DNA of 64,000 nucleotides from an uncultured virus (IMG/VR IMGVR_UViG_3300042893_000829) (Duplodnaviria; Heunggongvirae; Uroviricota; Caudoviricetes), in IMG/VR virus record IMGVR_UViG_3300042893_000829. One strand, given 5' to 3'. The translations under genes were made by a program, and so were the position numbers. Of this stretch, positions 1,332-33,812 are shown one piece after another (the stretch's first letter is position 1; every line of letters begins with the position of its first letter). Under the pieces are notes generated by a model. That model searched no databases. It worked only from the letters and a program-made list of their open reading frames with translations, and was not told where the DNA came from.

Positions 1332-1382
1332 TCTATAATAATATGAACTTCACAATTAAAATGTATGTTTTATTTTTATAGT

Positions 1383-4300
1383 ATGAAAAAAACTAAAATA
1401 GTTTTAATAAGTTCTTATTGTGATACCAAAGAAAAAATTGATGTTTTAATAAATACCATCAAATCCGTTAAGAGTTACAATTTAGATGTAATGGTAAATA
1501 GTCCTTTACCCTTACCTTCCGATGTGATAAATATGTGTGATTTTTATGTGCAAACAAAAGAAAACCCATTACTTAATTGGCCCGAAAAATCTGTTATGTC
1601 TTGGGTAAGACATACGGACAAAGATAAAGAAATTGTGATTAAAAGATCTGTAATTGATTATGGGTGGGCGGGACTTTACCAAACTAAAAAATTATCTGAA
1701 TATGCTTTAACTTATGACTATGACAGATATTATCATATTATATATGATACGGAAATTGATGATACGGTGGTTTCTACTTTTTTATCTGATAAAATATGTA
1801 ACTTTTTTCCATTTCATGAACACAAAGTTAGTTTACATTTAATTGCGTTAGACAGAGAAAACCTATTGAAATTTTCAAATCTGATTACTTTTGATAGTTA
1901 CCTTAAATTTAATTGTATAGTTGAGAACTGGCTTTATGATACTCTAATTAATAGTAATCTGGATTATAAAATTGAATTAGAAAAAATTGATGATTTAATA
2001 TTATTTCATAAAGACGAAAATTTATTTGATTACTCTGATATTAATGGTTTAGTTTTTTTTATAGTTAAAGATGTTGTAAATAATGATGAGGTTTGTTTAT
2101 ATTTTTACAATAATAAAGAAAAAATAAATGTTTTAATTACCGTAGATGGTGTCGAGTCCTCTTATGATATATCCAATAGGGATATCATTAATTTAGGGTT
2201 TAAACCATGCAATATAAAAAATGTTTTAATATCTTATGATGGAATATCATCGGATATAACAGAAAAAATAAAAAATATTATCCACAATGTTATTGAAATT
2301 ATTATGAATAAATCAAAAATTAAACTATTATATCTTACACCACACCTATCAACAGGTGGAATGCCTCAATTTGTATTAAAAAGAATTCAAGAACTCCAAA
2401 AATACAAAGACCAAATTGAAATATTTTTGGTTGAGTATTCTCAGTTTAGTAACACATACGTTGTCCAACGAGATAAAATAATTAATCTATTAGGTGAAGG
2501 TCATTTTTTTAGTTTAGGTGATACAACCAACACAAAAAGAAAATATGAGTTAATTGATATTATTAAAAACAATGATATTGATATTGTCCATTCTGAAGAA
2601 ATGTTAGAAGGATTTGAAAGTTTTAATAAAATTCCACTACCATTGTTAAATCAACTTTATTCAAATGATAGGTCTTGGAAAATGGTTGAGACTTGTCATA
2701 ATGTTTGGTTTAATCCGCAAACACATAAAAAGTTCAATCCTGAAGCGTATTGTTTTGTTACCCCTTATCATTTAAAGGAAACGTTTTTAAATGAAACACC
2801 AATTAAGTTTTTATCGTTATACCCAATTGAGAATAAGGTAACTAAAATTTTAGAGGAGAATGAAATCTATGGTGATTTTAATCAAGTACCACTTATTGAA
2901 AAAATTAAAGTAAGAAATGAACTTGGTTTGGATATGTTTAAAACTCACGTACTTAATGTTGGGTTATGGACAAGTGGTAAAAATCAAGGTGAAGGTGTTG
3001 AGGTTGCAAGAGAATTAATTGAATCAAATCCAGATATTGAATTCCATTTTATTGGGAACCAAGCTCCAAACTTTGAAGACTATTGGGGTCCAATAATGAA
3101 TAATTTACCATCAAACGTAAAAGTATGGGGTGAGCGTAATGACGTTGAAAAATTCATGACGGCTTGTGATGTTTTAATGTTTAACTCAACTTGGGAATGT
3201 AATCCGTTGGTTGTTAGAGAATCAATCAACTATGGAATGAAAATCCTTGCAAGAGATTTACCACAATACATGGGTATGTTTGATGGATATATAACACCAA
3301 TAGAAGGTGATGTTAAAAACATATCAAAACAATTGGTTGGACTTATCGAAAATAAGGACGTTTATAAAATATTACCTGATAATACATTTGGTGAAGATTT
3401 ATTAAATTTTTATAACGCAGTTACAAATATAAAAATTACCCAAAACAAACCATTAACCAAAGATTATACTTTTGTTAGACATTATGTTAATCAACCTTAT
3501 TTTGAGGTACAAGGAACCACAGAAAACAAATTGAACATTAAATATTATGATGATAACAATAATGTTAATTATCAGAACGAATTATCAATTAATAGTTGGG
3601 TTAAATTAAATAAAGAATACTTTATTAAATGGAGAACAACGGTTGAAGAAAATGGTGAAATCATTTACGATGAGACTTTAAATTTAAAAGATAAACGAGT
3701 ATATATTTCTTTTGGATCAAAATCATTAGGAGATACAATGGCTTGGATTCCTTATTGTGAGGTATTTAGAAAAAAACATGGTTGTCAACTTATAGTATCA
3801 ACATTCCTTAATAGTTTGTTTAAAGACCAATATCCTGATATTGAATTTGTTGAACCTGGTGATTTGGTAACTAATATACATGCACAATATAGATTAGGTT
3901 GGTTTTACAATGAAGATGGTAAATTTGATGCAAACAAACACCCATTTGATTTTAAGAAAATGCCATTACAAAAAACTGCAACCGATATATTAGGTTTAGA
4001 TTATGAAGAAGTTAGACCACTATTAAAATTACCTGATACACCTAAAAAGAAAAAAGTTGGTATTGGGTTTCACTCAACTGCACAATCAAAATATTGGAAC
4101 AACCCTGACGGATGGCAAACAGTTATAGACCATCTTAATAATTTGGGATATGAATGTATGGTCTATTCTAAAGAAGGTGATGGATATATGAATAACCATT
4201 ATCCTGAAGGTGTAACAATATTTAAAGGAGGTAACCTACAAGAAGTAATTGATGACCTATCAAGTTGTGAGTTCTTTATTGGTTTAGGGTCTGGTTTATC

Positions 4301-5858
4301 TTGGTTGGCTTGGGCTTGTAAATTACCTGTCGTTTTGATTTCAGGATTTAGTGAGAAATGGGCGGAAACAACTTTAGATACATACAGAGTTATTAACGAA
4401 AGTGTTTGTCATGGATGTTTTAACTCAGATAGATTAGATGCTGGTGATTGGAATTGGTGTCCACTACATAAGAATACGGATCGGATGTTTGAATGTACAA
4501 AAGAAATAAGTTCCGATATGGTTATTAAAGAAATAAATAAAATAATTAACAAAGAATTTAATAGTGATTTAGTTACTATTATATTGTCCCATGCAAACAC
4601 AAAAGAAAAAAGAAAAATTTTAATAGAACATTTAAAAACAATTAACACAAAAATACTACTATCAACAAATTACCCAATTGATGATGAAATTAAAGTTTTA
4701 TGTGATTACGTCATATATGATGAGGATAACCCAATATTATTGAAGGAGGATTTTAATAAGTATAACGTGTCTTTTTATTTTTATAGTGTCAGAAAAGGGG
4801 TTGAGGTAAGGGAGTCTTTTGATTATGAACATGGGTATGCCGTTTATAAATTAATACAAAATGGATTAACTGAATCAAAAAAATTAGGATTTAAATATTC
4901 TCATATTATAAATTACGATTATTTAATAAACAAAAATACATTACAAGATAATTATAAATTATTAGAAAATTACGATTCCGTATTTTATAGATATAAAAAT
5001 AAATCATATACGCAAGACTCATACTGTACTGGATTTTTTACAGGAAAAATAGATAAGTTAATTAAACCATTTACCCACTATAACACAAAAGACGAATATT
5101 ATAATTATGACGGGTATAATAAAATATTAGAAATAATAACAAAAGATGCGGTAAAAAAACAAAACTTAAATGTTAAAGAACTTTTTTATGAAGATTTAAT
5201 GGAAACATCAATTGTTAATAGAGTAGACGATAACCACAAAAATAACAAAGAAGTAATGGAAGAAAACGAATTCAAAAAAATAAGTGATTATTATAATTGC
5301 GATAAAACATCCACACACACATACCATAACGTCTATTCAAAAATATTTGAAGGGATAAGAGATGAGGTATTTTCGTTATTAGAAATCGGAATTCATGAGG
5401 GAGCATCTTTAAATGTTTGGAGAGACTATTTGAAGAATGCTAATATATATGGTTTAGATATCAATAGGGAATTTTCACATGATAGGGGTCATATTTTTAA
5501 AGGAGACCAAAATAACTTATTTGATTTAGAAAAAATCACATCAGAAATAAAAAGTTGTAAAGTCATAATTGATGATGCTTCCCATAATCCACAACATCAA
5601 ATTAAAACCTTTAATTATCTTTTTGAGAATTTATTAGAAGATGGTGGGTACTATATTATTGAAGACGTTGAAACGTCGTATTGGGATCCATTATCTGAAT
5701 TATATGGGTATGAAATTGGTTATTTAAATGTTGTTGATTATTTTAGTAAATTAACACATAATGTTAATTACAAATACAATGGATTTAATAATACTTTAAA
5801 AATTGAAAGCATTTTATTTACATCAAATTGTATTGTGATAAAAAAATTAATGAAATAA
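1383..5858 (+). CDS. Multidomain glyco-modification enzyme: unknown domain / GT4 / Aah-TibC-type O-heptosyltransferase / paralogous unknown domain / SAM-dependent methyltransferase
   Basis: Likely start is the ATG at 1383 (MKKTKI); the ORF track starts at 1365. GT4 motifs: HLSTGG, VGLWTSGKNQ, ECNPLVVRES. Heptosyltransferase motifs: SLGDTMAWIPY, FFIGLGSGLSWLAWA, VCHGCFN..WNWCP..FECTKEI. Methyltransferase motifs: LLEIGIHEGASL, GLDI, IIDDASH, GGYYIIED. Confidence 0.85.
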   Translation: MKKTKIVLISSYCDTKEKIDVLINTIKSVKSYNLDVMVNSPLPLPSDVINMCDFYVQTKENPLLNWPEKSVMSWVRHTDKDKEIVIKRSVIDYGWAGLYQTKKLSEYALTYDYDRYYHIIYDTEIDDTVVSTFLSDKICNFFPFHEHKVSLHLIALDRENLLKFSNLITFDSYLKFNCIVENWLYDTLINSNLDYKIELEKIDDLILFHKDENLFDYSDINGLVFFIVKDVVNNDEVCLYFYNNKEKINVLITVDGVESSYDISNRDIINLGFKPCNIKNVLISYDGISSDITEKIKNIIHNVIEIIMNKSKIKLLYLTPHLSTGGMPQFVLKRIQELQKYKDQIEIFLVEYSQFSNTYVVQRDKIINLLGEGHFFSLGDTTNTKRKYELIDIIKNNDIDIVHSEEMLEGFESFNKIPLPLLNQLYSNDRSWKMVETCHNVWFNPQTHKKFNPEAYCFVTPYHLKETFLNETPIKFLSLYPIENKVTKILEENEIYGDFNQVPLIEKIKVRNELGLDMFKTHVLNVGLWTSGKNQGEGVEVARELIESNPDIEFHFIGNQAPNFEDYWGPIMNNLPSNVKVWGERNDVEKFMTACDVLMFNSTWECNPLVVRESINYGMKILARDLPQYMGMFDGYITPIEGDVKNISKQLVGLIENKDVYKILPDNTFGEDLLNFYNAVTNIKITQNKPLTKDYTFVRHYVNQPYFEVQGTTENKLNIKYYDDNNNVNYQNELSINSWVKLNKEYFIKWRTTVEENGEIIYDETLNLKDKRVYISFGSKSLGDTMAWIPYCEVFRKKHGCQLIVSTFLNSLFKDQYPDIEFVEPGDLVTNIHAQYRLGWFYNEDGKFDANKHPFDFKKMPLQKTATDILGLDYEEVRPLLKLPDTPKKKKVGIGFHSTAQSKYWNNPDGWQTVIDHLNNLGYECMVYSKEGDGYMNNHYPEGVTIFKGGNLQEVIDDLSSCEFFIGLGSGLSWLAWACKLPVVLISGFSEKWAETTLDTYRVINESVCHGCFNSDRLDAGDWNWCPLHKNTDRMFECTKEISSDMVIKEINKIINKEFNSDLVTIILSHANTKEKRKILIEHLKTINTKILLSTNYPIDDEIKVLCDYVIYDEDNPILLKEDFNKYNVSFYFYSVRKGVEVRESFDYEHGYAVYKLIQNGLTESKKLGFKYSHIINYDYLINKNTLQDNYKLLENYDSVFYRYKNKSYTQDSYCTGFFTGKIDKLIKPFTHYNTKDEYYNYDGYNKILEIITKDAVKKQNLNVKELFYEDLMETSIVNRVDDNHKNNKEVMEENEFKKISDYYNCDKTSTHTYHNVYSKIFEGIRDEVFSLLEIGIHEGASLNVWRDYLKNANIYGLDINREFSHDRGHIFKGDQNNLFDLEKITSEIKSCKVIIDDASHNPQHQIKTFNYLFENLLEDGGYYIIEDVETSYWDPLSELYGYEIGYLNVVDYFSKLTHNVNYKYNGFNNTLKIESILFTSNCIVIKKLMK

Positions 5859-5895
5859 TAAATGGGATCTATATAGATAACAGAAAATAAGTTTT

Positions 5896-5923
5896 AACCC
5901 TCACCTTTAAAGTGGGGGGGTTT
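5896..5923. terminator. Probable bidirectional intrinsic terminator between convergent genes
   Basis: Imperfect GC hairpin aaccctcac-ctttaaa-gtgggggggttt between stop codons at 5858 and 5938. Confidence 0.6.
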
Positions 5924-5937
5924 ATATTATAGTTTTA

Positions 5938-8900
5938 TTAAGCGGTTACCGCTCTTATAACTGCGAACGATAAAACAATTGCCTGACCCAAATTACCCGT
6001 TGTAACATTTCTCACTGAAATAACCGCAGAACCTCCTGATGGAAATGCATTTAAATTGTAAGAAGCGCTTGTACCAACAGAGGTGTGTTGGAGAACTACA
6101 ATGTCTGTTGCACCAATCGTAGTATTAGTTAAAGTGAAGGATACCGTTGTGTCGGCGTTCAATGTTGCGCTGTGCATCACTATTTGTCCTGTTGGTCTAC
6201 TAAGAGTGACCCCTGTTGATTTACTTGTTAACTGAGTTACAGTTCCACCAGCACCTGTATCGTAACCTAATTTTGTCGATGAGCCAATCGAATAAAGATT
6301 ACCAACTGTTGTTGTTGTGTTTCCAGTATTGATAAATCTAAAACCAGCATTTGAACCGTTAGCACCAATAACTAAGTTTTCACCCGTAGTTGAAACCATA
6401 GCGGTATCTCCAAGAACACTGTTATTATTGTATCCTCCCGCACTTACATATGGTGAGAAAAGCACACCTTCACTCGATGCATTAATAATACGAGCACTAA
6501 TTCCATCAGTAACTCTAGTGCCTGAAGTAACATCTAATGGATATGTGGGCGCACCTGAGCTACCAATTTGTAAGAAATTATTTATTCCAATATTTCCAGT
6601 AGTAAAAATAGACATTCTATTATTACTTCCAAGAACTGCGGTTGCACCATAAGATATGGTAAATGCTTGGTTGGTGTTATCAATACCAACCGCAACTGAG
6701 TTTGTTCCGGTTGACGGTATAAACCTTACAAATGGGTCATTTGTAGCACGGTCTGTCATTGATATGTTTGGAGATGCACTATCTTTTTCTAACGTTAAAG
6801 TTGTACCATCAAATATTGCTCCTGACTCTCCTTGTAGTGTGTTTGCAGTACCTGTGGCAGTAACTAAATAATTGTTTGCGTTGGAATTTATTACTACGCT
6901 AGCGCCTGAAGTACCGTTGGTACCCGAAGTTCCATTTGTACCTGAAGACCCATTCGTACCACTAGACCCATTCGTACCACTAGTTCCATTCGTACCACTA
7001 GTTCCATTAGTTCCATTAGTTCCATTAGTCCCATTAGTACCATTTGTTCCTGAAGTACCATTTGTTCCATTAGTACCATTAGTACCATTCGTACCTGACG
7101 TGCCATCTAGTCCATTAAAGACCCATGAAACAGTATATTCGGCAGTGTCAGTTAACGACCCTGAACCAGTGACAAAAGTAAGTGATATCTCCCAATATGT
7201 GATATTATCTGTTATAACACCAATCTCATAGATTCCAATTACACTATTATTAGATAATTCTGTTATTTGTAGATAACCTTTATTACCCGCCGATATTAAA
7301 GTGTTTAATGAGTCAAACCAATCGTAATAATTTGTTGTATTAATATCCTCAATATTAATAGCAATTGCTGAAATTGTTGATATTATTTGTGTATCCGCAA
7401 GAAAAGTCGTTGAAGAAGGACTTGCAGGTATTGGAAAAGTTCCGTCATAAAACCATCTTCCACTATTTGATCCATCATTACCCACTTTTCCAGGATTTCC
7501 ATTATTTCCTGAAGTTCCATCTGTTCCTGAAGTTCCATCTGTACCTGAAGTTCCTGCCTGTGCCATTAATGCCCAATTACCACTAAATGGAGGAGTTGGT
7601 ATCCCCGTATTACCATTTATTAATGAAATATAAGAACTACCGGCAAATTGAACGACATCATTTATATTGTAAGTGGACATTAAGTTCCATGAACCTTGCC
7701 AATTAAATGAAATGCCACTAGTTCCGTTAGTACCTGATGTTCCATTTGTTCCGTTTGTACCATTTGTTCCCGAAGTTCCATTAGTTCCTGAAGTTCCATT
7801 AGTGCCATTAGTTCCGCTCGTACCATTAGTTCCGTTAGTTCCTGAAGTTCCGTTTGTACCATTAGTCCCTGAAGTACCATTCGTTCCCGACGTACCATTA
7901 GTTCCATTCGTACCTGATGTTCCGTTCGTTCCTGAGGTTCCATTCGTACCATTAGTACCGCTTGAACCATTTGTTCCATTAGTACCCGATGTTCCATTTG
8001 TTCCTGATGTTCCATTAGTACCATTAGTTCCGTTAGTACCGTTTGTTCCTGATGTACCATTTGTTCCGTTTGTACCTGAAGATCCGTTAGTACCATTTGT
8101 ACCACTAGTTCCGTTCGTACCGTTAGTACCTGAAGTTCCATTAGTACCGTTAGTTCCATTCGTACCGTTAGTACCTGAAGTTCCGTTGGTACCTGATGTG
8201 CCGTTAGTTCCCGAAGTTCCATTCGTACCGTTAGTCCCATTGGTTCCACTAGTTCCATTTGTTCCGTTAGTACCAGATGTTCCATTAGTACCGCTTGTAC
8301 CATTCGTTCCGTTAGTTCCATTAGTTCCTGAAGTCCCATTAGTACCATTTGTTCCCGAAGTTCCGTTGGTTCCATTAGTACCTGATGTTCCATTAGTTCC
8401 GTTTGTACCATTGGTTCCATTTGTACCATTAGTACCCGATGTTCCGTTAGTCCCATTTGTTCCGCTAGTACCATTTGTTCCATTAGTGCCCGATGTACCG
8501 TTCGTACCTGAAGACCCATTAGTTCCATTCGTACCGTTTGTTCCCGAAGTTCCGTTGGTGCCTGAAGATCCTGAGTCACCATTTACTCCGCTAGTACCAT
8601 TTGTGCCCGATGTTCCATTAGTACCTGAAGTCCCATTAGTACCATTAGTACCATTAGTACCATTAGTACCATTAGTTCCCGATGTTCCATTAGTCCCTGA
8701 AGTTCCGCTAGTCCCATTTGTTCCTGAAGTTCCATTAGTTCCCGAAGTACCATTTGTTCCGTTAGTCCCTGAAGTTCCGTTAGTTCCATTGGTCCCGCTC
8801 GTACCATTTGTACCGCTAGTTCCATTAGTACCCGATGTACCGTTAGTTCCATTCGTTCCGTTTGTACCTGAAGTCCCATTAGTCCCATTCGTTCCATTAG

Positions 8901-11900
8901 TACCTGACGTACCATTAGTACCATTAGTTCCCGATGTTCCGTTAGTTCCATTGGTCCCTGAAGTTCCATTTGTTCCGCTTGTACCTGAAGTTCCATTTGT
9001 ACCTGAAGTCCCATTGGTTCCATTTGTTCCCGAAGTTCCATTAGTACCGTTGGTTCCATTCGTCCCATTTGTTCCTGATGTTCCATTTGTTCCGTTTGTA
9101 CCTGAAGTACCATTTGTACCTGAAGTTCCATTTGTACCTGAAGTTCCGGCAGATGTTAATAAATTTGTGCCGACACCCGCAGCACATGCGGTTATGTCAA
9201 GAAACGCACCTCTTGCAGTACCACCTTGTTCAAAAAACCTAATTCTATTTTGCCATACGTCAAAAGTAACGCCTGCGCCTGCAATGGTAGTGTTAGTTAC
9301 AGGTTTACTTAATAGGATTTCTCCACCTTCATCACCAGCCTGATACAATACACTTAATTTTGTACCGTCAAAAGTTAAAAGAGATTCGGCAACTATTCCA
9401 CCCGATCCGTTTGAAGTTAGTATTTGGTCGTTTGACCCTGGAACTGTTGGTGATGATCCACTAGTTCCATTGGTTCCGCTCGTACCATTAGTACCTGAAG
9501 TTCCATTTGTTCCTGATGTTCCATTTGTGCCGTTAGTACCTGATGTACCATTTGTACCTGAGGTACCATTCGTCCCATTAGTACCCGAAGTTCCATTAGT
9601 TCCGCTAGTCCCATTTGTACCATTTGTACCCGAAGTCCCGTTTGTTCCGTTAGTACCATTTGTTCCTGACGTTCCGTTCGTACCATTAGTACCTGAAGTT
9701 CCATTTGTACCCGAAGTTCCGTTTGTACCTGATGTCCCATCAGTTCCATCAACCCCAGAAAGGCCACTAGAACCACTAGACCCACTAGTACCATTTGTTC
9801 CATTCGTTCCCGATGTTCCGTTTGTACCATTAGTCCCTGATGTACCATTTGTTCCATTTGTACCACTAGTTCCGTTGGTACCACTTGTACCATTCGTACC
9901 GTTTGTCCCTGAAGTACCGTTTGTACCACTTGTTCCATTAGTTCCATTTGTGCCTGAAGTACCGTTAGTTCCTGATGTACCATTCGTTCCGCTAGTACCA
10001 TTTGTACCATTTGTACCTGACGTACCGTTGGTTCCATTCGTCCCTGAAGTCCCGTTAGTTCCGTTCGTACCATTAGTGCCAGATGTTCCATTGGTCCCTG
10101 ACGTTCCGTTGGTACCTGAAGTTCCGTTAGTACCTGAGGTTCCATTCGTACCATTAGTACCTGACGTACCGTTAGTTCCACTCGTACCATTTGTTCCTGA
10201 AGTTCCGTTAGTACCGTTAGTTCCTGATGTCCCATTTGTCCCTGAAGTTCCGTTGGTACCATTTGTTCCTGACGTTCCATTGGTTCCTGAAGTACCGTTA
10301 GTCCCATTTGTTCCGCTAGTACCATTTGTTCCTGAAGTGCCGTTAGTACCTGAGGTTCCCGATTCTCCATTTACACCACTTGTACCGTTAGTACCACTTG
10401 AACCATTAGTACCATTAGTCCCTGAAGTACCGTTAGTACCAGATGTTCCGTTTGTGCCTGAAGATCCTGAGTCTCCATTTACTCCGCTAGTACCATTAGT
10501 TCCTGAAGTTCCGTTTGTTCCATTAGTTCCATTAGTTCCATTAGTTCCGCTAGTACCATTTGTACCACTAGTCCCATTTGTCCCTGATGATCCGTTTGTT
10601 CCTGAAGTACCGTTCGTACCATTTGTTCCACTAGTGCCGTCGGTACCTGAAGTTCCATTCGTTCCGTTAGTACCTGATGTACCATTTGTTCCTGAAGTTC
10701 CATTTGTACCGTTGGTACCACTAGTTCCAGAAGTTCCGTTTGTACCTGAAGTTCCATTCGTTCCGTTAGTACCTGACGTTCCATTTGTTCCGTTTGTACC
10801 CGAAGTACCGCTAGTACCATTTGTTCCACTAGTACCGTCGGTACCTGAAGTTCCATTCGTTCCGTTAGTGCCACTAGTACCGTTCGTACCGCTAGTACCA
10901 TTTGTTCCCGATGTTCCGTTAGTACCATTAGTGCCTGAAGTACCATTAGTACCAGATGTTCCGTTTGTACCTGAAGATCCTGAATCACCATTTACTCCGC
11001 TAGTACCATTTGTGCCCGATGTTCCATTCGTACCGCTAGTACCATTTGTGCCGTTAGTCCCTGACGTTCCATTTGTTCCATTTGTACCTGAAGTCCCATT
11101 CGTTCCGCTAGTCCCGTTTGTTCCATTCGTTCCGCTAGTTCCGTTTGTTCCACTAGTTCCTGACGTTCCATTTGTTCCTGAAGACCCTGAGTCACCATTT
11201 ACTCCGCTTGTGCCGTTAGTACCTGATGTTCCATTTACTCCACTTGTACCATTCGTTCCTGACGTACCGTTAGTTCCTGATGTTCCGTTTGTACCGCTAG
11301 TACCATTTGTACCATTTGTACCCGAAGTTCCATTGGTACCATTTGTTCCGTTGGTGCCTGATGTCCCATTAGTTCCACTAGTTCCATTTGTGCCTGAAGA
11401 TCCTGAGTCTCCACTTACCCCGCTCGTACCATTAGTACCTGAAGTTCCATTAGTACCATTTGTTCCGTTGGTGCCTGATGTCCCAGAAGTCCCTGATTCC
11501 CCATTAACTCCGCTTGTACCATTAGTCCCTGATGTTCCGTTTGTACCGTTAGTTCCTGAAGACCCATTTGTTCCATTAGTGCCGCTAGTTCCATTTGTTC
11601 CATTAGTGCCGCTAGTTCCATTTGTTCCGTTTGTTCCTGATGTTCCATTAGTGCCGCTAGTTCCATTTGTTCCGTTTGTCCCTGATGTTCCGTTAGTACC
11701 ATTAGTACCTGATGTTCCATTAGTTCCTGAAGTACCATTTGTACCTGACGTTCCGTTTGTTCCATTAGTTCCCGAAGTTCCGTTTGTCCCATTTGTTCCG
11801 CTAGTACCTGAAGATCCGTTAGTACCATCAGTACCTGATGTTCCATCTGTTCCATTAGTTCCACTTGTACCTGAAGTTCCGTTTACTCCAGATATACCAC

Positions 11901-14367
11901 TTGTGCCGTCAGTACCTGAAGTCCCGTCTGTTCCGTTTGTTCCATCAGTACCGCTTGATCCATCAGTACCGTTAGTTCCTGAAGACCCATCGGTTCCATT
12001 TGTACCTGAAGTTCCATCTGTACCATTTGTGCCTGAACTACCATCTGTTCCATTTGTTCCACTTGTACCATCTGTTCCCGAACTACCATTTGTACCATCA
12101 GTACCGCTAGTCCCATCTGTACCTGAACTACCACTAGTTCCATCGGTTCCGCTAGATCCATTTGTTCCATCAGTACCTGAAGTACCATCTGTTCCATTTG
12201 TTCCGCTTGACCCATTAGTTCCGTCTGTACCACTAGTACCGTCTGTTCCGCTTGTACCATCGGTACCACTTGAACCATCCGTACCGTTAGTTCCTGAAGA
12301 TCCATCTGTTCCATTTGTACCTGAAGTTCCATCTGTACCACTTGTACCATCCGTACCACTAGTTCCATCTGTTCCATTAGTCCCTGAAGACCCATTAGTC
12401 CCGTCTGTTCCTGAAGATCCATTAGTACCATCCGTTCCGCTAGTTCCATCCGTACCACTTGTTCCATCTGTTCCTGAACTACCATTTGTTCCCGAAGTAC
12501 CATTTGTTCCGTTAGTTCCACTTGTACCATTTGTTCCGTTAGTACCTGACGTTCCATTTACTCCCGATATTCCACTTGTTCCGCTAGTTCCATTTGTTCC
12601 GCTCGTACCATTTGTACCGCTAGTACCATTTGTCCCGCTCGTACCATTAGTTCCGTTAGTACCATTTGTACCATTTGTACCGTTGGTCCCACTTGAACCA
12701 TTTGTTCCATTAGTCCCTGAAGACCCTGATGAACCATTTGTTCCATTAGTACCCGAAGTTCCATTAGTACCCGAAGTTCCATTAGTACCCGAAGTTCCAT
12801 TAGTTCCTGATGTCCCGTTGGTACCGCTTGAACCATTTGTTCCGTTAGTACCAGATGTTCCATTTGTCCCGTTAGTACCAGATGTTCCACTTGTTCCATT
12901 AGTCCCATTGGTTCCACTTGTACCATTTGTACCATTTGTACCATTAGTTCCTGAAGTCCCATTTGTACCTGACGTACCGTTCGCGCCTGAAGTTCCGTTT
13001 GTACCATTAGTACCCGAAGTTCCATTAGTACCCGAAGTTCCATTAGTACCCGAAGTTCCATTTGTCCCCGAAGTACCGTTTAATCCTGAAGTACCATTAG
13101 TTCCAGATGTGCCACTAATACCATTTGTTCCTGATGTTCCTGAGGTACCATTTGTTCCGTTGGTCCCAGAAGTTCCATCTGTACCATTAGTTCCTGAGGT
13201 TCCATTCGTTCCTGAAGTTCCATTTGTACCTGAAGTTCCATTTGTACCTGAAGACCCATCCGTACCATTTGTACCTGAAGACCCATCCGTACCATCCGTA
13301 CCATTTGTACCATTAGTACCTGAAGTTCCATTTACTCCAGATATCCCACTTGTTCCATTAGTTCCTGAAGTTCCATTAGTCCCACTTGTTCCATTCGTTC
13401 CTGACGTACCGTTGGTTCCACTTGATCCATTATCCCCCGATGTTCCAGATATACCACTTGTTCCAGATATACCACTTGTTCCGGATATACCACTTGTTCC
13501 GTCAGTTCCATTACTCCCAGATGTACCATTAGTTCCTGAAGTTCCATTTGCACCACTTGTCCCATCACTACCCGAACTACCATTAGTTCCTGAAGACCCT
13601 GCCGTTCCTGAACCACCACTTGTGCCCGAAGAACCATTCGTTCCGCTAGTACCGTTAGTACCTGAAGTACCATTAGTACCATTAGTCCCTGAAGTTCCGC
13701 TAGTTCCTGAACCACCACCCCCAGAGGTTATTCCAGTTATTATAATTGTTGATCCATCATTGTTATATAATTCTAAAGTACTACTACCTGAAAAATATGT
13801 TCCCCCAGTTAAACAACAACCAGGTTCCGGGAATACTTTCCAAACCGAATCATTTCTTGTAACACCATTTACACCTTCAATTGAATTGTCTAACCAAGCA
13901 TTAATAAATGCAACACCTTCAGGTGTGTTATTTCTAACTGTTGTACCATAGTCTGAAAATATTACGGTTCTACCTCCGGGACCTGTTGCTCCAGAGGCAT
14001 TTAAAAATAATGTATTGTAATTTTCTATATTGAATTGATAAACCGTATCTCCACTGTAAGCATATGCCAACATACCTAATCTTCTTCTACCTGAAGATAT
14101 ATTATCAGAATTAAGAACTATTGAGTCAAATGAAAATACCGAACCAGTTCCTTTATAATAATGTATAGGTATTGTATTTCCAATAAATTCAATATACCCT
14201 GTTTGACCTGAAGGTATTGTATATAATAAATCATTTGTGGTATATACTTCCATATAACCACCAATATTTAATACACTAAACGTTGTCCCAAACGGTTTAG
14301 TTCTCAATACGGATTGTGGTCCTAAAGAGACAATTGGGGTTATTGGGTTTCTATATACTTTTGACAT
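5938..14367 (-). CDS. Giant collagen-like (Gly-X-Y, mainly G-T-N/G-T-S/G-T-D) fibre protein, putative virion appendage
   Basis: 2809-aa ORF with Gly at every third residue over about 2000 aa in three main blocks. It has globular N- and C-terminal domains, and an internal WQGSWNLMSTYNINDVVQFAGSSYISL module resembles small carbohydrate-binding repeats of tail fibres. Confidence 0.85.
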   Translation of the reverse strand: MSKVYRNPITPIVSLGPQSVLRTKPFGTTFSVLNIGGYMEVYTTNDLLYTIPSGQTGYIEFIGNTIPIHYYKGTGSVFSFDSIVLNSDNISSGRRRLGMLAYAYSGDTVYQFNIENYNTLFLNASGATGPGGRTVIFSDYGTTVRNNTPEGVAFINAWLDNSIEGVNGVTRNDSVWKVFPEPGCCLTGGTYFSGSSTLELYNNDGSTIIITGITSGGGGSGTSGTSGTNGTNGTSGTNGTSGTNGSSGTSGGSGTAGSSGTNGSSGSDGTSGANGTSGTNGTSGSNGTDGTSGISGTSGISGTSGISGTSGDNGSSGTNGTSGTNGTSGTNGTSGTNGTSGISGVNGTSGTNGTNGTDGTDGSSGTNGTDGSSGTNGTSGTNGTSGTNGTSGTNGTDGTSGTNGTNGTSGTSGTNGISGTSGTNGTSGLNGTSGTNGTSGTNGTSGTNGTSGTNGTNGTSGANGTSGTNGTSGTNGTNGTNGTSGTNGTNGTSGTSGTNGTNGTSGTNGTNGSSGTNGTSGTNGTSGTNGTSGTNGTSGTNGTNGSSGSSGTNGTNGSSGTNGTNGTNGTNGTNGTSGTNGTSGTNGTSGTNGTSGTSGISGVNGTSGTNGTNGTSGTNGTNGTSGTNGSSGTDGTSGTDGTSGTDGTNGSSGTDGTNGSSGTNGTDGTSGTDGTSGTDGTSGTNGTDGSSGTNGTDGSSGTDGTSGTDGTSGTDGTNGSSGTNGTDGTSGTDGTNGSSGTDGTSGSSGTDGTSGTDGTNGSSGTDGTSGTNGTDGSSGTNGTDGTSGTNGTDGSSGTNGTDGSSGTDGTNGTDGTSGTDGTSGISGVNGTSGTSGTNGTDGTSGTDGTNGSSGTSGTNGTNGTSGTNGTNGTSGTNGTSGTNGTSGTNGTNGTSGTNGTNGTSGTNGTSGTNGTNGTSGTNGTNGTSGTNGTNGSSGTNGTNGTSGTNGTSGVNGESGTSGTSGTNGTNGTNGTSGTNGTSGVSGDSGSSGTNGTSGTNGTSGTNGTNGTNGTSGTNGTNGTSGTNGTSGTNGTSGTNGTSGVNGTSGTNGTSGVNGDSGSSGTNGTSGTSGTNGTSGTNGTNGTSGTNGTSGTNGTNGTSGTNGTNGTSGTNGTSGTNGTSGVNGDSGSSGTNGTSGTNGTSGTNGTNGTSGTNGTSGTNGTSGTNGTNGTSGTDGTSGTNGTSGTSGTNGTNGTSGTNGTNGTSGTNGTSGTSGTNGTNGTSGTNGTSGTNGTNGTSGTDGTSGTNGTNGTSGTNGSSGTNGTSGTNGTSGTNGTNGTNGTNGTSGTNGTSGVNGDSGSSGTNGTSGTNGTSGTNGTNGSSGTNGTSGVNGESGTSGTNGTSGTNGTSGTNGTNGTSGTNGTSGTNGTNGTSGTNGTSGTNGTNGTSGTNGTSGTNGTSGTNGTNGTSGTNGTSGTNGTSGTNGTSGTNGTNGTNGTSGTNGTNGTSGTNGTNGTSGTNGTSGTNGTSGTNGTNGTSGTNGTSGTNGTNGTSGTNGTSGTNGTNGTSGTNGTNGTSGTNGTNGTSGSSGSSGLSGVDGTDGTSGTNGTSGTNGTSGTNGTNGTSGTNGTNGTNGTSGTNGTNGTSGTNGTSGTNGTNGTSGTNGTSGTNGTNGTSGTNGTSGTNGTSGTNGTSGSSPTVPGSNDQILTSNGSGGIVAESLLTFDGTKLSVLYQAGDEGGEILLSKPVTNTTIAGAGVTFDVWQNRIRFFEQGGTARGAFLDITACAAGVGTNLLTSAGTSGTNGTSGTNGTSGTNGTNGTSGTNGTNGTNGTNGTSGTNGTNGTSGTNGTSGTSGTNGTSGTNGTNGTSGTNGTNGTSGTNGTNGTNGTSGTNGTNGTNGTSGTNGTSGTNGTSGTNGTNGTSGTNGTNGTSGTNGTSGTNGTSGTSGTNGTSGTNGTNGTNGTNGTNGTSGTNGTSGTNGTSGVNGDSGSSGTNGTSGTNGTNGTNGSSGTNGTSGTNGTNGTSGTNGTNGTSGTNGTNGTNGTNGTNGTSGTNGTNGTSGTNGTNGTSGTNGTNGTNGTSGTNGTSGTNGTNGTSGTNGTNGTNGTSGTNGTSGTNGTSGTNGTNGTNGTNGTSGTNGTNGTSGTNGTNGSSGTNGTNGTSGTNGTNGTNGTNGTSGTNGTSGTNGTNGSSGTNGTNGTSGTNGTSGTNGTNGTSGTNGTSGTNGTNGTSGTNGTNGTSGTNGTNGTSGTNGTSGTNGTNGTNGTSGTNGTSGISFNWQGSWNLMSTYNINDVVQFAGSSYISLINGNTGIPTPPFSGNWALMAQAGTSGTDGTSGTDGTSGNNGNPGKVGNDGSNSGRWFYDGTFPIPASPSSTTFLADTQIISTISAIAINIEDINTTNYYDWFDSLNTLISAGNKGYLQITELSNNSVIGIYEIGVITDNITYWEISLTFVTGSGSLTDTAEYTVSWVFNGLDGTSGTNGTNGTNGTNGTSGTNGTNGTNGTNGTNGTSGTNGTSGTNGSSGTNGSSGTNGTSGTNGTSGASVVINSNANNYLVTATGTANTLQGESGAIFDGTTLTLEKDSASPNISMTDRATNDPFVRFIPSTGTNSVAVGIDNTNQAFTISYGATAVLGSNNRMSIFTTGNIGINNFLQIGSSGAPTYPLDVTSGTRVTDGISARIINASSEGVLFSPYVSAGGYNNNSVLGDTAMVSTTGENLVIGANGSNAGFRFINTGNTTTTVGNLYSIGSSTKLGYDTGAGGTVTQLTSKSTGVTLSRPTGQIVMHSATLNADTTVSFTLTNTTIGATDIVVLQHTSVGTSASYNLNAFPSGGSAVISVRNVTTGNLGQAIVLSFAVIRAVTA
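6900..13715 (-). repeat. 9-bp-period coding tandem repeat (GGN-ACN-AAY/TCN/AGY/GAY) in blocks at about 9460-13715, 7715-9145 and 6900-7110
   Basis: Directly visible 9-nt periodicity (e.g. gtaccatta / gttccattt / gtacctgaa on the + strand) with heavy synonymous variation. Confidence 0.95.
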
Positions 14368-14379
14368 ATCTTTTTTTAA

Positions 14380-15303
14380 TTATGATGAAACTGTGTTTCC
14401 TTTAAAATAAATATTTTCATTATTCGTTAATTTAAATTCAGAACTTGGGTATGATGTATAAACTCTATATGTTGTTTGGAAAATTGTTGATCCAGTATAC
14501 GTAAATGTGTTTGAATTAATAGTTGATTCCATATATATTGGTGTAAATATATTTGGGCTACCATTAGAACTTAAATCAATTATTATTTGTTTTTGGTTAT
14601 TTGTTAAACTAATTGGGATTACCCAGGTGTACCAAGAATCTCCAGGTATTGTGAATTCAGGAATTTCAGTTGTTGTAAAATTGTATGCAACAATATTATT
14701 ACCAAATGAATCTAAACCTCCACTTACTTGAGGTACAGATTTATTTATTATATGTGGGAACTCTCCAGATGTCCAACCACTAAATCCAACATATCTGTTA
14801 AGTTCTGTATTAAATATTGTTTGATTTTGTGTTGGTTGACTATTATTACTAAAACCATAGAAATCAAAACCACCATCATACATCCATTGACCCATTAACG
14901 TTCCTCCACTTATTGGTTCAATAAACAAGTAAGCCAAGTAAACAGGGGTTGGTGTAGGTGTAGGAGTAACTCCAGGTGTTGGAGTAGGTGTATTTGTTGG
15001 AGTAGGTGTTGGAGTAGGTGTTGGTGTTCTGGTAGGCGTATTTGTTGGTGTTATTGTTGGTGTTGGAGTATTAGTTGGTATTGGTCTTAATACGTTTAGA
15101 ATATTTGGACAATCAGAACCTAAAATTAAAATAGTATATGTTCCGTAAACTTCTCTTTCCGGTATTAATAAATTTGGTTGAAAAATAAACGGTAGAGTTA
15201 CATCACCCAAATTAATGGTAATGTTATCATTATCCGGTTTAAATAAAATATTCGCTATTTCACCGTCAAAATTTATACTTTGTATTGTTATTATTTGACT
15301 CAT
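14380..15303 (-). CDS. Hypothetical structural protein with Pro-Thr (PT) repeat linker
   Basis: About 45-aa PTNTPTPT... tract followed by a beta-rich domain. The gene ends 12 nt before the start of the giant fibre gene and is preceded by GTATTTATA. Confidence 0.7.
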   Translation of the reverse strand: MSQIITIQSINFDGEIANILFKPDNDNITINLGDVTLPFIFQPNLLIPEREVYGTYTILILGSDCPNILNVLRPIPTNTPTPTITPTNTPTRTPTPTPTPTPTNTPTPTPGVTPTPTPTPVYLAYLFIEPISGGTLMGQWMYDGGFDFYGFSNNSQPTQNQTIFNTELNRYVGFSGWTSGEFPHIINKSVPQVSGGLDSFGNNIVAYNFTTTEIPEFTIPGDSWYTWVIPISLTNNQKQIIIDLSSNGSPNIFTPIYMESTINSNTFTYTGSTIFQTTYRVYTSYPSSEFKLTNNENIYFKGNTVSS

Positions 15304-15334: not shown

Positions 15335-15775
15335 TCATTTTTTCACCTTAATAAAATTATACCACAATCTTTCGTGAGCAAAATATATAAATGGTTTTAA
15401 CACTAACTCACTAACCCCAAGTAATGTTGAGACCCCTATTGATGCCCCTAATGAATACGCAACCCCGACGGTAGTTAAAGTACCTAAAAACCTATAGGTA
15501 ATTGTTTTAAGTATATGTCTAACTAAAACAGATTCTTCTTTAATTGTTTTAATATATGCAATATTATTTTTAATTTTACAGTGACCAACACAACTAATAT
15601 GCCATTTATATTCATTTATTTCTGGCAACCAATCTTTTGTGGTATAAGTATTACCATCAATAATAATATCTGAAACTAATATTTCATTTCCATTTTCAAT
15701 CAATCTCCACCTATTATCTTTGGTTTCGGAAACTGTATTAAATCTAATTTGGTAAGTTTTACTTTGTGTTTTCAT
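15335..15775 (-). CDS. DUF2061-domain membrane protein with an extra N-terminal domain
   Basis: C-terminal RHILKTITYRFLGTLTT...FIYFAHERLW pattern recognised as DUF2061. Confidence 0.7.
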   Translation of the reverse strand: MKTQSKTYQIRFNTVSETKDNRWRLIENGNEILVSDIIIDGNTYTTKDWLPEINEYKWHISCVGHCKIKNNIAYIKTIKEESVLVRHILKTITYRFLGTLTTVGVAYSLGASIGVSTLLGVSELVLKPFIYFAHERLWYNFIKVKK

Positions 15776-16223
15776 CCGTCAAATAATTAATTATATCTTC
15801 TTGTATTGATTCGTCAACCATAAATTTCCATTTATCATCTTCTTTTGATATTGAGTTTCTAATACCTGTTGCGGAAATAAAACCAATATTATCTGGAGGA
15901 GTAAATTCATTTATTTCATACCCAACACCTCTACCGTAATTAACAGATTCAATATCTGGAATAACAATAACCTTAACATTATCACCTTTTGATTTGTGAT
16001 ATTTCTCAATCATTGTAACGGTTTGTTCTGTTGTAAATGGATTTTTATCATCAGGTTCAATATCTCTAACCATAATAAGGGCCGGAATACCTTGATTTAA
16101 TTTTTGTTGTATTAACTCTATATGACCATAATGATATGGTTGGAAACGGCCTATAAAGATTGCATATTTCTTACTTTCATTCGTTGTAGGATTTCCTCCA
16201 TGATTTTTAACTTCCCAGGTCAT
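15759..16223 (-). CDS. HxGH (cytidylyltransferase-like) nucleotidyltransferase; candidate minimal ATP sulfurylase
   Basis: GRFQPYHYGH and C-terminal ISATGIR motifs. Its start overlaps the cysC stop (ATGA). Confidence 0.75.
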   Translation of the reverse strand: MTWEVKNHGGNPTTNESKKYAIFIGRFQPYHYGHIELIQQKLNQGIPALIMVRDIEPDDKNPFTTEQTVTMIEKYHKSKGDNVKVIVIPDIESVNYGRGVGYEINEFTPPDNIGFISATGIRNSISKEDDKWKFMVDESIQEDIINYLTDENTK

Positions 16224-16669
16224 AAATTTTCAATTATTTTGTTTAAAGATATTTGAGGGTCAACATTTGTGGTATCAATGTCAATAAAGTTTTCTGTTGG
16301 TTGTTCATATTCGTCAGTATGAAAATGTTCTCTACCTCTAATGTCTGTAGTATGAACATAAAACTCTACAAGTAAATCACCTAAATCGTACTTAAAACTT
16401 TCTCTAAGTTCTTTATATGGAGCAACTAAACTAACGATAACAGTATGTCCTTGGGCTAAGATAAATTTTGCAATGTCTTGAGCTCTTTTAATATTTTCCT
16501 CACGACCTTCTCTACCATATTTTTGGTTGTTAAATAACGATCTAAGTTCATCCCCATCAATATGAAAAACTTTATTTTTATCTTCTAAAACCGTTTTTAA
16601 CATTAAAGACAAAACTGTCTTTCCTGCCCCAGGTTGACCAGTAAACCAATATATTTTATTATCTCTCAT
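16220..16669 (-). CDS. cysC: Adenylyl-sulfate (APS) kinase
   Basis: IYWFTGQPGAGKT P-loop, IDGDELR, REENIKR, VSLVAPY and YEQP motifs. ATG at 16669. Confidence 0.9.
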   Translation of the reverse strand: MRDNKIYWFTGQPGAGKTVLSLMLKTVLEDKNKVFHIDGDELRSLFNNQKYGREGREENIKRAQDIAKFILAQGHTVIVSLVAPYKELRESFKYDLGDLLVEFYVHTTDIRGREHFHTDEYEQPTENFIDIDTTNVDPQISLNKIIENL

Positions 16670-16671
16670 AA

Positions 16672-17490
16672 TCAAAAATATCCAAATTGGTCATAAAACC
16701 ATTGGTAATTACTTTTAATCCAGTTTGAGGCATTAACACCCAAAACTTCTTTATAATCACTTTTAATAGGTTCTATTTTACTTTTTATTGTATGGTCACC
16801 GTATACCCCATAAACCTCATCATCTTCTTGAGTTATTTGTTCCACATTATTAAAGTCGTGTTCAAAATATGGAAGTTCTAAATAATTGTATATTCTTTGC
16901 ATCTCCTTTTTTGGGTTTGATGTAAAGTCCTCAAATTTTACAAACAAAACATTTTGGTTAATACCCTCTTTAAACATTTGATATAACCTTTCTAATGACA
17001 TACCAACAGGTTGTGACTGAGCCCAAATATCAATCCTTTTTTCTGTTGTGGTTCCTTTCATTTGTGAGTGGTCAACCAAACCAGAATCCTTATGTTGGTT
17101 TTTTCTAAAGTTTTTCTCCATTGAAGAGAATATTCCTCTTAAATCTCTAACCATACAAATAATTTTTGGATTTGGATAGAATGAATTTAAAAACCCATAA
17201 TGTACTCCCCACCCTCTACTTTTATCTAAAACGTAAGGTTTATCGGTTACACCATTAAAAAATCCTAACATACCCTGATTACAGAAATTTAAAAACCCAC
17301 TCTTCATTAATTCAGGGTCTTGAGCTTTAAATTCTGGAGATGTGGAATAGTTTGATCTTGATGCGTAAACTAATTCTAAAACACCAGATGTTGGTGTTAC
17401 ATAAAAATCGGGATTCTGACCCATTACGTTTTGTAGTAGTGTTGATCCAGCTCTTGGTAATGAGCTTTGAAAAAATATCTTTTGTACCAT
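16672..17490 (-). CDS. PAPS-dependent sulfotransferase
   Basis: 5'-PSB loop SLPRAGSTLL, DKSRGW, KIICMVRD..S (3'-PB), VKFEDF..NP...RIYNYL. Confidence 0.9.
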   Translation of the reverse strand: MVQKIFFQSSLPRAGSTLLQNVMGQNPDFYVTPTSGVLELVYASRSNYSTSPEFKAQDPELMKSGFLNFCNQGMLGFFNGVTDKPYVLDKSRGWGVHYGFLNSFYPNPKIICMVRDLRGIFSSMEKNFRKNQHKDSGLVDHSQMKGTTTEKRIDIWAQSQPVGMSLERLYQMFKEGINQNVLFVKFEDFTSNPKKEMQRIYNYLELPYFEHDFNNVEQITQEDDEVYGVYGDHTIKSKIEPIKSDYKEVLGVNASNWIKSNYQWFYDQFGYF

Positions 17491-18397: not shown

Positions 18398-19306
18398 TTA
18401 ACTATTAGTAAAGTTAATTACTTGGTTTATTTTATTAATAACCATTTCTGGTGTTATACTCCTATGACATTCATTTTCTCTTTCAGTGTTTAAAAATATT
18501 GGACAACTACTTTTAATGTTTGGAAACATATTAAAACATCCGTTACATACATAAGGATTTTCAACTCTAAAACATTCAAACTCGTTTTGTTTTTTAGTGA
18601 AGTTTGATATCATAACAACAGGAACTCCATACGCCCACGCCAACCAAGATAACCCAGAAGATAAACCAATAAAAAATCTTGATTCTAAAATATGATTTAA
18701 TGAAACATTTATATCGTTGTTTCCGTGAAATCCTTTTGCGTTTTGTAAATTTAATGTATTTTCATACGAAACATTATAAACATCAAAATTACTATTAACC
18801 AATTCATTTATGATTGTTTGCCAACCATCCTTATATTCCCATTTTGATATTTCCTTTATTGTTTCAGGACCCATCGTTATTTTATTTTTATTTATGATTC
18901 TTTGTTTGGGTATTACTGGACATTTACCTGGTTTTGTTTCTTGAGGTAAGAACATTGTATCTTTTGCAGCATAAAACATTCCACCAAGAGTATGGGACAT
19001 ATTATCTTTATGGTACCCAACATCAATTAACTTATCTATCTCAATAGATTTAGATTGATTTGCGTTTATAAACTCATACTTTGGATTTGTTGACTTTAGT
19101 AAGTGGGGGAAGAATGTTGATATATAAACTTTTTTTGGTTTATGATATTCCATAAACGGGTCTATAAGGGATGAAAAACATATCGTATCTCCCAAACAAA
19201 AAGAATCAAAATGTAATAAAAGTTCTTTATCTTTAAAATTAGATAAATTAGGATCTCTTTCAGTATATTTTAATAGTTCTGAATTATCGTAATGTCTTTT
19301 AACCAT
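18398..19306 (-). CDS. Aah/TibC-type autotransporter O-heptosyltransferase-like protein
   Basis: CLGDTICF, FFIGLSSGLSWLAWAYGVPVVMISNFT and RVENPYVCNGCFN...CP...NECHRSITPEMV. It is paralogous to the middle of the 1383-5858 protein. Confidence 0.8.
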   Translation of the reverse strand: MVKRHYDNSELLKYTERDPNLSNFKDKELLLHFDSFCLGDTICFSSLIDPFMEYHKPKKVYISTFFPHLLKSTNPKYEFINANQSKSIEIDKLIDVGYHKDNMSHTLGGMFYAAKDTMFLPQETKPGKCPVIPKQRIINKNKITMGPETIKEISKWEYKDGWQTIINELVNSNFDVYNVSYENTLNLQNAKGFHGNNDINVSLNHILESRFFIGLSSGLSWLAWAYGVPVVMISNFTKKQNEFECFRVENPYVCNGCFNMFPNIKSSCPIFLNTERENECHRSITPEMVINKINQVINFTNS

Positions 19307-21790: not shown

Positions 21791-21821
21791 TTTTATTTTT
21801 TTTTATTAATTTTTTATTTTT

Positions 21822-21853
21822 AAAAACCCCCAAGTTTCCCTGGGGGTTATTTT
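21822..21853. terminator. Intrinsic terminator
   Basis: aaaaacccccaa-gtttccc-tgggggttatttt hairpin between the two adhesin-like genes. Confidence 0.7.
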
Positions 21854-21854
21854 G

Positions 21855-32529: not shown

Positions 32530-32532
32530 TTT

Positions 32533-33809: not shown

Positions 33810-33812
33810 ATC

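Follow-up and report, generated by a model that had tools for sequence, protein, structure and literature searches.

The 64,000-nt stretch of DNA analysed here (the window) belongs to an IMG/VR virus record of 83.9 kb (IMGVR_UViG_3300042893_000829) that CheckV rates as 29% complete, and its minus strand carries, at positions 5938-14367, an open reading frame (ORF) of 2809 codons with an ATG start, as given by the ORF list and its translation, whose product consists for the most part of Gly-X-Y triplets with Thr at X and Asn or Ser at Y. Textbook rules make the collagen triple helix dependent on proline/hydroxyproline or charge pairs, and the repeats of this protein (the fibre protein) offer neither. 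Judging from the sequence, we favour, though only modestly, the reading that it is a very long modular virion fibre with a trimeric, collagen-type shaft, probably coated with sugars by a multidomain enzyme (the multi-enzyme) that is encoded by the adjacent gene; trimer and triple-helix folding, glycosylation, location on the virion and a role akin to a fishing line are what we infer in this reading.

A strict Gly-X-Y register held over some 2000 residues

Triplet counting revealed 666 in-register Gly-X-Y triplets, equivalent to 1998 of the 2809 residues. The runs as counted span aa 221-250, 254-1639, 1741-2220, 2272-2301 and 2419-2490, and as the 'GGS' at aa 251-253 is itself in register, aa 221-1639 form a single unbroken run of 473 triplets, with the remaining runs comprising 160, 10 and 24 triplets. 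At the X position of the 666 triplets we found T 586, S 42, V 12, I 8, D 6, A 3, L 3, N 3, E 2 and K 1, and at the Y position N 341, S 281, D 41, A 1, P 1 and V 1; Thr takes X in 88% of triplets and never Y, and the most frequent triplets are GTN (324), GTS (224), GSS (39) and GTD (37). With one Pro, one Lys and no Arg within the repeats, the usual stabilisers of collagen (Pro/Hyp, charge pairs) are not encountered. A preliminary description of this DNA had reported Gly at every third residue for about 2000 residues, Thr dominating X with Asn/Ser/Asp at Y, and essentially no Pro, Lys or Arg; all of this is borne out by the counts inside the repeats, whereas its figure of roughly 650 Gly-Thr-X triplets was slightly high, there being 586 of that kind among the 666 of the general Gly-X-Y form.

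Within this monotony some finer structure can be discerned. At Y, alternation of Asn with Ser is favoured (Asn has a lag-1 autocorrelation of -0.37 there, with little correlation at longer lags), a zone rich in Asp, with many GTD triplets, lies at aa ~650-850 within the first run, and a 'G-V-N-G-D/E-S-G-S/T-S' punctuation occurs eight times at irregular spacing; neither the autocorrelation nor the punctuation spacing disclosed a regular super-period in the 473-triplet run. The Pfam Collagen model (PF01391) scores the fibre protein at 859.3 bits against a gathering cut-off of 27.2 (E 5e-266), with no other Pfam family matching the full-length protein at E<=1e-3.

Three globular inserts of 101, 51 and 117 aa interrupt the repeat, resulting in the following order of parts along the minus strand: an N-terminal domain, the presumed virion-attachment anchor (aa 1-220, nt 13708-14367); collagen-like run 1, mostly GTN/GTS (aa 221-1639, nt 9451-13707); insert 1 (aa 1640-1740, nt 9148-9450); run 2 (aa 1741-2220, nt 7708-9147); insert 2, a Trp/Tyr-rich knob (aa 2221-2271, nt 7555-7707); run 3 (aa 2272-2301, nt 7465-7554); insert 3, also a knob (aa 2302-2418, nt 7114-7464); run 4 (aa 2419-2490, nt 6898-7113); and a C-terminal tip region with the stop codon (aa 2491-2809, nt 5938-6897). 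The gene starts 12 nt past the stop of the upstream gene, with an A-rich leader devoid of a Shine-Dalgarno motif. Two long plus-strand ORFs over the repeat, at 9470-13951 (1493 codons) and 7673-9343 (556 codons), were considered and rejected as shadow frames of the repeat rather than genes, because homologous end domains are present only in the minus-strand frame; gene callers could mis-annotate such ORFs.

The pattern is strict in protein and loose in DNA. A k-mer count over the gene gave 59 nt as the longest exact repeat, with no 61-mer recurring and a 51-mer repeated at only 18 of 8380 positions, and Tandem Repeats Finder reported 62-97% matches, so the repeat is degenerate at the DNA level. 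Codon use for Gly, Thr, Asn and Ser resembles that of other genes in the window, with synonymous sites scrambled. Since synonymous sites have drifted while the amino-acid pattern has remained strict, the pattern is maintained by selection and does not stem from recent amplification; nor can it be attributed to chance. In addition, 473 unbroken triplets with scrambled synonymous sites argue for a packing constraint acting on every third residue.

The preliminary description had raised the possibility that the length of the repeat is an artefact of assembly. Such an artefact could be an expanded or collapsed repeat or a chimera. Repeats do often break assemblies, and contig ends truncate 31 of the 44 collagen-type fibre ORFs among related loci; however, the degenerate DNA provides unique sequence for an assembler to follow, and complete relatives carry 642, 696 and 451 triplets. 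A separate public virus record (L165, 91,986 bases) holds the same gene, matching over 20.7 kb with no mismatch and one 18-nt gap that amounts to two GTN triplets fewer at aa 1897-1902 (nt ~8662-8679). Sampled words of the gene are present in 24 runs from 24 lake-water/freshwater metagenome studies dated 2016-2025, six of these runs containing at least half of the words. Short k-mer contigs from four of the runs (2016 and 2024) cover, in each run, all 30 bins of the gene; these pieces of 243-1813 nt never span the gene and have no bearing on its length, nor do apparent contig 'joints' within it, whose sides of no more than 29 nt represent cross-talk between repeats. Taken together, we regard an artefactual length as hardly credible. 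The two-triplet difference from L165, unless it is a difference of assembly, suggests that slippage in triplet number is the fastest-changing feature of this phage.

Exchangeable modules on a widespread shaft

Scanning public viral contigs with the back-translated pattern GTN-GT(S)-GTN-GT(S)-GTN-G, we found the shaft pattern in at least 155 stretches. Among 80 loci fetched, 78 have an ORF with at least 10 triplets, with Thr (or Ser) at X and Ser/Asn/Asp at Y, and Pro accounts for 0.1-3.4% of the whole ORF in those loci; those that are complete go up to 933 triplets (3206 aa) and 901 triplets (3395 aa). The singularity implied by the preliminary description thus did not survive the scan, and by sequence the fibre protein is best described as a large, complete example of a widespread class in uncultured phages.

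The N-terminal domain has a family of its own, with 214 cluster representatives at E<=1e-3 and 139 at <=1e-30; the match is N-terminal in all 150 proteins (111-2196 aa) among the matches listed. A word search by this domain yielded 30 large relatives with 43-60% identity, none of the 30 with Gly-X-Y runs, their shafts being made of other repeats. A relative is encoded in 394 of 442 viral stretches, and the best 80 viral loci comprise 44 with collagen-type shafts, 33 with none and 3 left unassigned. The same anchor carries 0, 51, 112, 310, 451, 642, 664/666, 696 and up to at least 1020 triplets. The longest found here is L197, where at least 1020 Gly-Thr-Asn/Ser triplets lie in an ORF of at least 3556 aa that is open at the contig end; several sister contigs (L194-L199) likewise end within the repeat. 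In L174 and L169, the same N-terminal domain carries a collagen-type shaft with hydrophobic residues at X, a different proline-free chemistry; the L174 ORF (at least 3550 aa, open at the contig end) holds at least 936 triplets, among them GLS 275, GIS 203, GTS 156 and GDS 114. One anchor with differing shafts conforms to the pattern of exchangeable phage-fibre modules. A structural model of the domain reached a pLDDT of 74; a collagen XV trimerisation domain and the N-termini of tailspikes came up as fold matches at Z ~3, which is within noise.

The inserts and tip point in the same direction. Insert 1 is 91% identical over 101 aa to a piece of the L048 fibre, its residues 1-34 match nine further ORF rows of the GTX type at 55-75% identity, and its first ~35 residues constitute a motif that recurs directly after collagen runs in other fibres. 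Insert 2 matches phrog_5073 'tail fiber protein' (E 5e-7), with a CBM_5_12 match (17.3 bits, below the 26.2 cut-off) as a lead only, and insert 3 has 36-41% identity to ORFs of L012/L031/L066, L045, L078/L087, L015 and L020. The tip region (319 aa) has its counterpart in the L015 fibre, a protein of at least 3263 aa with 883 triplets, whose tip it matches with 72% identity over 320 aa. The last ~110 aa find matches in 13 cultured-phage records at 33-60% identity (phrog_18251, E 3e-32); in an Acinetobacter Friunavirus the match lies at the C-terminus of a 'non-contractile tail fiber protein', and in two cyanophages it adjoins annotated tail-fibre genes. Based on these alignments, the tip is homologous to C-termini in tail-fibre modules of cultured phages, and inserts and tip alike are exchangeable modules. 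Against PDB sequences, the tip returned only Hia (E 0.36), and the end domains gave no Pfam match at E<=1.

A TibC-type enzyme beside the fibre gene

The multi-enzyme, of 1497 aa, is encoded on the plus strand at 1365-5858, convergent on the fibre gene. It has a GT1/GT4 domain at aa 516-664 (Pfam), a methyltransferase domain at aa 1304-1439 (phrog_21658) and, between them at aa 725-1060 (nt 3537-4544), a match of 293.5 bits to TIGR04414, 'autotransporter strand-loop-strand O-heptosyltransferase' (Aah/TibC), for which the NCBIfam cut-off is 200. Enzymes of this family transfer heptose from ADP-heptose and assemble as a dodecameric ring. Compared with the TibC structure 4RAP, the middle domain aligns at E 3e-71, and the TibC residues Asp110 and Cys 339/342/358/370, the former catalytic and the latter belonging to the iron finger (Yao et al. 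2014, PMC4358343), are all conserved in the alignment. As judged from these matches, the middle domain is a true member of the TibC/Aah-type protein O-heptosyltransferase family.

This domain was found repeatedly in company with the shaft. TIGR04414 exceeded its cut-off in 24 of 49 searched records with the GTX pattern (5 of the 6 that are at least 90% complete) and in none of 14 control genomes; it did so in 7 of 17 further collagen-shaft records and in none of 33 sister records with a non-collagen shaft (0 of the 4 at least 90% complete), one of which scored 126.7 bits. The pooled counts are 31/66 shaft records vs. 0/33 sister records, with few independent lineages underlying them. In the 23 records having both, the median gap between enzyme domain and fibre ORF is 2.5 kb, with 19 of the 23 within 10 kb, and the convergent arrangement recurs in other records. 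No TibC-type match was found in L174 and L169, two fragmentary records. The idea in the preliminary description that neighbouring glycosyltransferases act on the fibre gains support from the TibC/Aah-type domain and its adjacency in many phage records.

The 79-nt gap between the convergent genes (5859-5937) holds a terminator-like hairpin (5898-5918) which may serve both. On the other side of the fibre gene, 12 nt upstream of it and also on the minus strand (14380-15303), lies the gene for a 307-aa companion protein with a Pro-Thr-rich linker of ~45 residues (aa ~75-121); in 59 of 79 related loci its gene immediately precedes that of the fibre, and from its position and composition the protein could be an adaptor, a chaperone or another target of glycosylation. 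A second TibC-like transferase, a 302-aa paralogue within the fibre gene block (18398-19306, minus), scores 125.8 bits with TIGR04414, below the cut-off, and keeps the LGD motif and the four Cys positions with the N-terminal beta-barrel part lacking; a GT9-family, heptosyltransferase-like gene is located at 393-1331 (minus; PF01075, E 7.5e-15), with a weak TIGR04414 score of 36.9 bits. The fibre gene block further includes, at 15759-17490 (minus), a cytidylyl/adenylyl-transferase-like gene and those for an APS kinase and a sulfotransferase. The presence of an APS kinase, a sulfotransferase and a small nucleotidyltransferase in this block is a hint of sulfated glycans; a sulfotransferase is also present near non-collagen fibres (10 of 79 loci) and hence is not specific to the collagen-type shaft.

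Three large proteins of 550, 1362 and 728 aa are encoded in the same block (20138-28238, minus). Those of 550 and 1362 aa (20138-25943) are fibre-like, being rich in Gly/Ser/Asn with TGGTY..TFTN repeats, have a common N-terminal 'MA[FY]VIIND' start, and have modules in common with shafts found elsewhere in the N-terminal-domain family; their Gly-Gly-x-x-Asn...Ser repeats are reminiscent of the heads of trimeric adhesins. Of the 79 loci, 39 keep the 728-aa protein near the fibre. Cluster look-ups of the 307-aa and 728-aa proteins returned only viral hypothetical clusters and a weak LamG-like lead. Existing structure models for neighbouring proteins are of low confidence, as is a model of the fibre tip, and neither bears on the nature of the shaft. 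In addition, a plus-strand block at 31315-45831 comprises sugar genes (GT2, GT4, GT92-like, two FkbM-type methyltransferases, an NAD-dependent epimerase/dehydratase and a rhamnosyltransferase-like gene) interleaved with those for dUTPase, exonuclease and PhoH, a sugar repertoire of unusual size for a phage. Scans of the 49 window ORFs with Pfam and NCBIfam named no autotransporter family, and the repetitive protein adjacent to the TibC-type domain is the collagen-like fibre.

The window also encodes T4-type proteins, namely a Gp23-type capsid protein (PF07068, E 3e-72), a Gp20-type portal (PF07230, E 9e-75) and a prohead protease (PF03420, E 6e-22, Pfam), along with PhoH and a terminase fragment; its bearer is an uncultured freshwater T4-like phage (a Straboviridae-like myovirus), with a whole genome that the CheckV completeness suggests is roughly 290 kb. 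The capsid protein is at most 44% identical to any among 50,697 phage records, with an uncultured 484-kb phage and a Microcystis phage as the best matches; a scan of the 64-kb window found no tRNA genes. A paper on freshwater jumbo 'moraphages' notes core glycosyltransferases, collagen being unmentioned in the portion consulted. Because the fibre gene block holds other fibre-like proteins and the phage has a T4-type capsid, portal and prohead protease, we read the fibre protein as part of a virion.

The proposed fibre, its rivals and its kin

In the model we propose, the fibre would be anchored to the particle through its N-terminal domain and would end in the C-terminal region, a distal tip that binds the host. 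Between the two, the Gly-Thr-(Asn/Ser/Asp) repeats would build a thin, trimeric shaft of the collagen type, ~570 nm long in total and interrupted by three small knobs. This shaft would serve as a length-tunable spacer that widens the radius for host capture. At the axial rise of 0.286-0.29 nm per residue quoted for the triple helix in a review, the segments are predicted to measure ~406, 137, 9 and 21 nm. The preliminary description had put a triple helix at over 500 nm; its arithmetic is right, yet the length is divided into segments parted by knobs. The multi-enzyme, for its part, most probably attaches and tailors sugars on exposed Thr/Ser of the shaft, and these sugars would take the place of the proline or of the charge pairs by which other collagens are stabilised or stiffened. 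In a triple helix the side chains at X face outward, and Thr at X would present the adjacent TibC-type enzyme with as many as 586 accessible hydroxyls per chain. As to its parts, we think a trimeric, collagen-type shaft reasonably probable, given the strict and selected Gly register, the motifs or knobs after the runs and the precedent of phage collagens, and glycosylation of the fibre protein seems to us a little more probable than its absence. A bolder version, that the proline-free Gly-Thr-Asn/Ser triple helix has its X-threonines heptosylated and tailored by the TibC-type multi-enzyme, yielding a sugar-sheathed rod of about half a micrometre with its length tuned by triplets, a fishing line in dilute lake water and a third kind of stable collagen, we put forward tentatively and with considerable doubt.

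Several points weigh against the glycosylated collagen-type fibre. The host-guest scale of Persikov et al. 2000 is reported to place Thr in the X position, and Asn, Ser or Asp in the Y position, with the residues that form triple helices less well. Known bacterial collagens have Pro at X and Thr at Y (overall, 19-31% Pro at X and 32-48% Thr at Y, according to a review), and the known TibC/Aah acceptors are serines on beta-helical autotransporters rather than collagen (Yao et al. 2014, PMC4358343). Of the genes for ADP-heptose, rfaE domain II and gmhA were not found in the 83.9-kb, 29%-complete record. Structural comparison of the ends was likewise unhelpful: the N-terminal model had nothing at E<=1e-3 vs. 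PDB by Foldseek and no clear PDB match by VIA-align wide (best Z 3.6), hhalign of the N-terminal alignment vs. T4 gp10, gp12 and fibritin gave probabilities below 1%, and AlphaFold2 of the C-terminal 319 aa, run without an alignment, was unusable (pLDDT 35). With respect to the linkage of enzyme and shaft, a naive Fisher test gives p = 1.5e-7, which overstates the case for such non-independent records; a tree of 57 N-terminal domains of known status (34 distinct rows) shows ~4 changes of shaft type, leaving only 2-4 independent pairs and a sign test (p = 1) with no power. On the same tree, 15 of 24 collagen-shaft records lack the enzyme, these being mostly short fragments, and identical anchors occur with and without it (L179 vs. 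L175; L171 vs. L172/L173), so many of the absences merely reflect short contigs. We conclude that the link of enzyme and shaft is well supported by their conserved adjacency across diverged phages, with co-evolution not statistically proven.

How else might the repeats be explained? If the X and Y residues are indeed poor at forming triple helices, as reported, the shaft could project from the virion as a 'mucin-like' tether or brush, extended, for the most part unstructured and with dense O-glycosylation; this would also agree with the absence of Pro and charge pairs and with the linkage of a protein O-glycosyltransferase to the fibre gene. A disordered chain, however, needs no Gly at exactly every third residue, and here 473 triplets are unbroken despite synonymous drift, the same register rule is kept in dozens of diverged phage fibres, and conserved motifs or knobs follow the collagen runs, as expected of points of registration or trimerisation; we surmise that a brush is unlikely. 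The repeats could also fold into a triple helix that is left unmodified, stabilised by its length, by side-chain and water hydrogen bonds, by the knobs and by cold lake water. Unglycosylated phage and bacterial collagens do fold (Ghosh et al. 2012, PMC3368898), and recombinant bacterial collagens are described in a review as reaching a plateau of stability beyond ~150 residues with little dependence on sequence. The glycosyltransferases would then serve other targets, among which further fibres, the Pro-Thr linker protein, the envelope of the host and DNA may be considered; more than 10 sugar-handling genes in the window have no assigned target, the Pro-Thr linker of the upstream 307-aa protein could be an acceptor, and the tree-corrected test of linkage is powerless. 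Against this, TibC-family enzymes act on proteins rather than lipopolysaccharide or DNA (Yao et al. 2014, PMC4358343), and the TibC-type domain was seen only with Ser/Thr collagen shafts, usually adjoining the fibre gene, while records whose fibres have beta-type repeats like those of the 1362- and 550-aa proteins are without it. A naked helix therefore strikes us as improbable. Some other Gly-dependent ordered fold may be envisaged too, such as the polyglycine-II bundle that the preliminary description named as an alternative. Polyglycine-II helix bundles, as in some antifreeze proteins, occur in phage receptor-binding proteins, at the tips of adhesins, and Gly at every third position is compatible with their packing; but intramolecular bundles need regular turns, for which the 473-triplet run has no regular super-period and only irregular punctuation, and Pfam scores the sequence as a collagen repeat, making such a fold very improbable.

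Collagen-like fibre shafts of phages are already known, and what sets the fibre protein apart is the lack of Pro and charge pairs, Thr at X, the scale and a TibC-family partner. Literature on proline-free Gly-Thr-Asn/Ser phage collagens, or on the pairing of a heptosyltransferase with collagen, was not found in a full-text search, with subscription journals largely outside its reach. EPclA and EPclB are collagen-like tail-fibre proteins of E. coli O157:H7 prophages, and EPclA has been shown to form a trimeric collagen triple helix (Ghosh et al. 2012, PMC3368898); a further case is 'bacteriophage collagen' (Smith et al. 1998, as cited). The fibre protein resembles EPclA in its N-terminal domain, Gly-X-Y shaft and C-terminal domain. 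Unlike it, the end domains PfN (PF08400) and PfC (PF06820) were not found in the fibre protein, and the collagen domain of EPclA is short, proline-rich, unglycosylated and melts at 42 C, in contrast to ~2000 residues with no Pro or charge pairs and with Thr at X. Another Gly-X-Y repeat ORF is orf028 of the T4-like cyanophage P-SSM2 (Sullivan et al. 2005, PMC1079782). Gly-X-Y makes up 49% of it, Pro, Ser and Thr being frequent at X and Y, and the part of the source consulted mentions no link with an enzyme that glycosylates proteins. Compared by description only, both are candidate tail fibres of T4-like aquatic phages with long Ser/Thr-rich Gly-X-Y runs.

Sugar-bearing collagens offer another comparison. 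In the exosporium glycoproteins of the BclA type (Bacillus/Clostridioides) and the Thr(Gal) cuticle collagen of the vent worm, both Thr-rich, glycosylated threonines are thought to aid stability or hydration. Those proteins have GPT triplets with Pro at X and Thr at Y, whereas the fibre protein has Thr at X, Asn/Ser/Asp at Y and no Pro. As in the TibC-TibA and Aah-AIDA-I pairs of E. coli, the enzyme adjoins the gene of a repetitive, Ser/Thr-rich surface fibre, but the presumed acceptor here is a collagen-like phage fibre and the enzyme is fused to GT4 and methyltransferase domains. Mycobacteriophages also glycosylate their virions (Freeman et al. 2023, as cited in PMC12619734), and the likeness lies in phage-encoded glycosyltransferases for the phage's own structural proteins, presumed in the present case; their targets are the C-termini of capsid and tail-tube subunits, modified by other enzyme families, in contrast to a presumed fibre with up to 586 Thr sites per chain.

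If the shaft is triple-helical, a natural and strongly selected run of 473 triplets with neither Pro nor charge pairs would extend the rules of collagen, and such an extension would matter all the more because lake phages commonly carry the shaft. A proline-free, possibly sugar-stabilised collagen would moreover become available as a simple recombinant system. For the phages themselves, our data point to fibres several times longer than the long tail fibre of T4 (~145 nm) and to a spacer that varies from 0 to more than 1000 triplets on one conserved anchor. For the TibC/Aah family, so far known from bacterial adhesins, they point to a new use, the decoration of virions.

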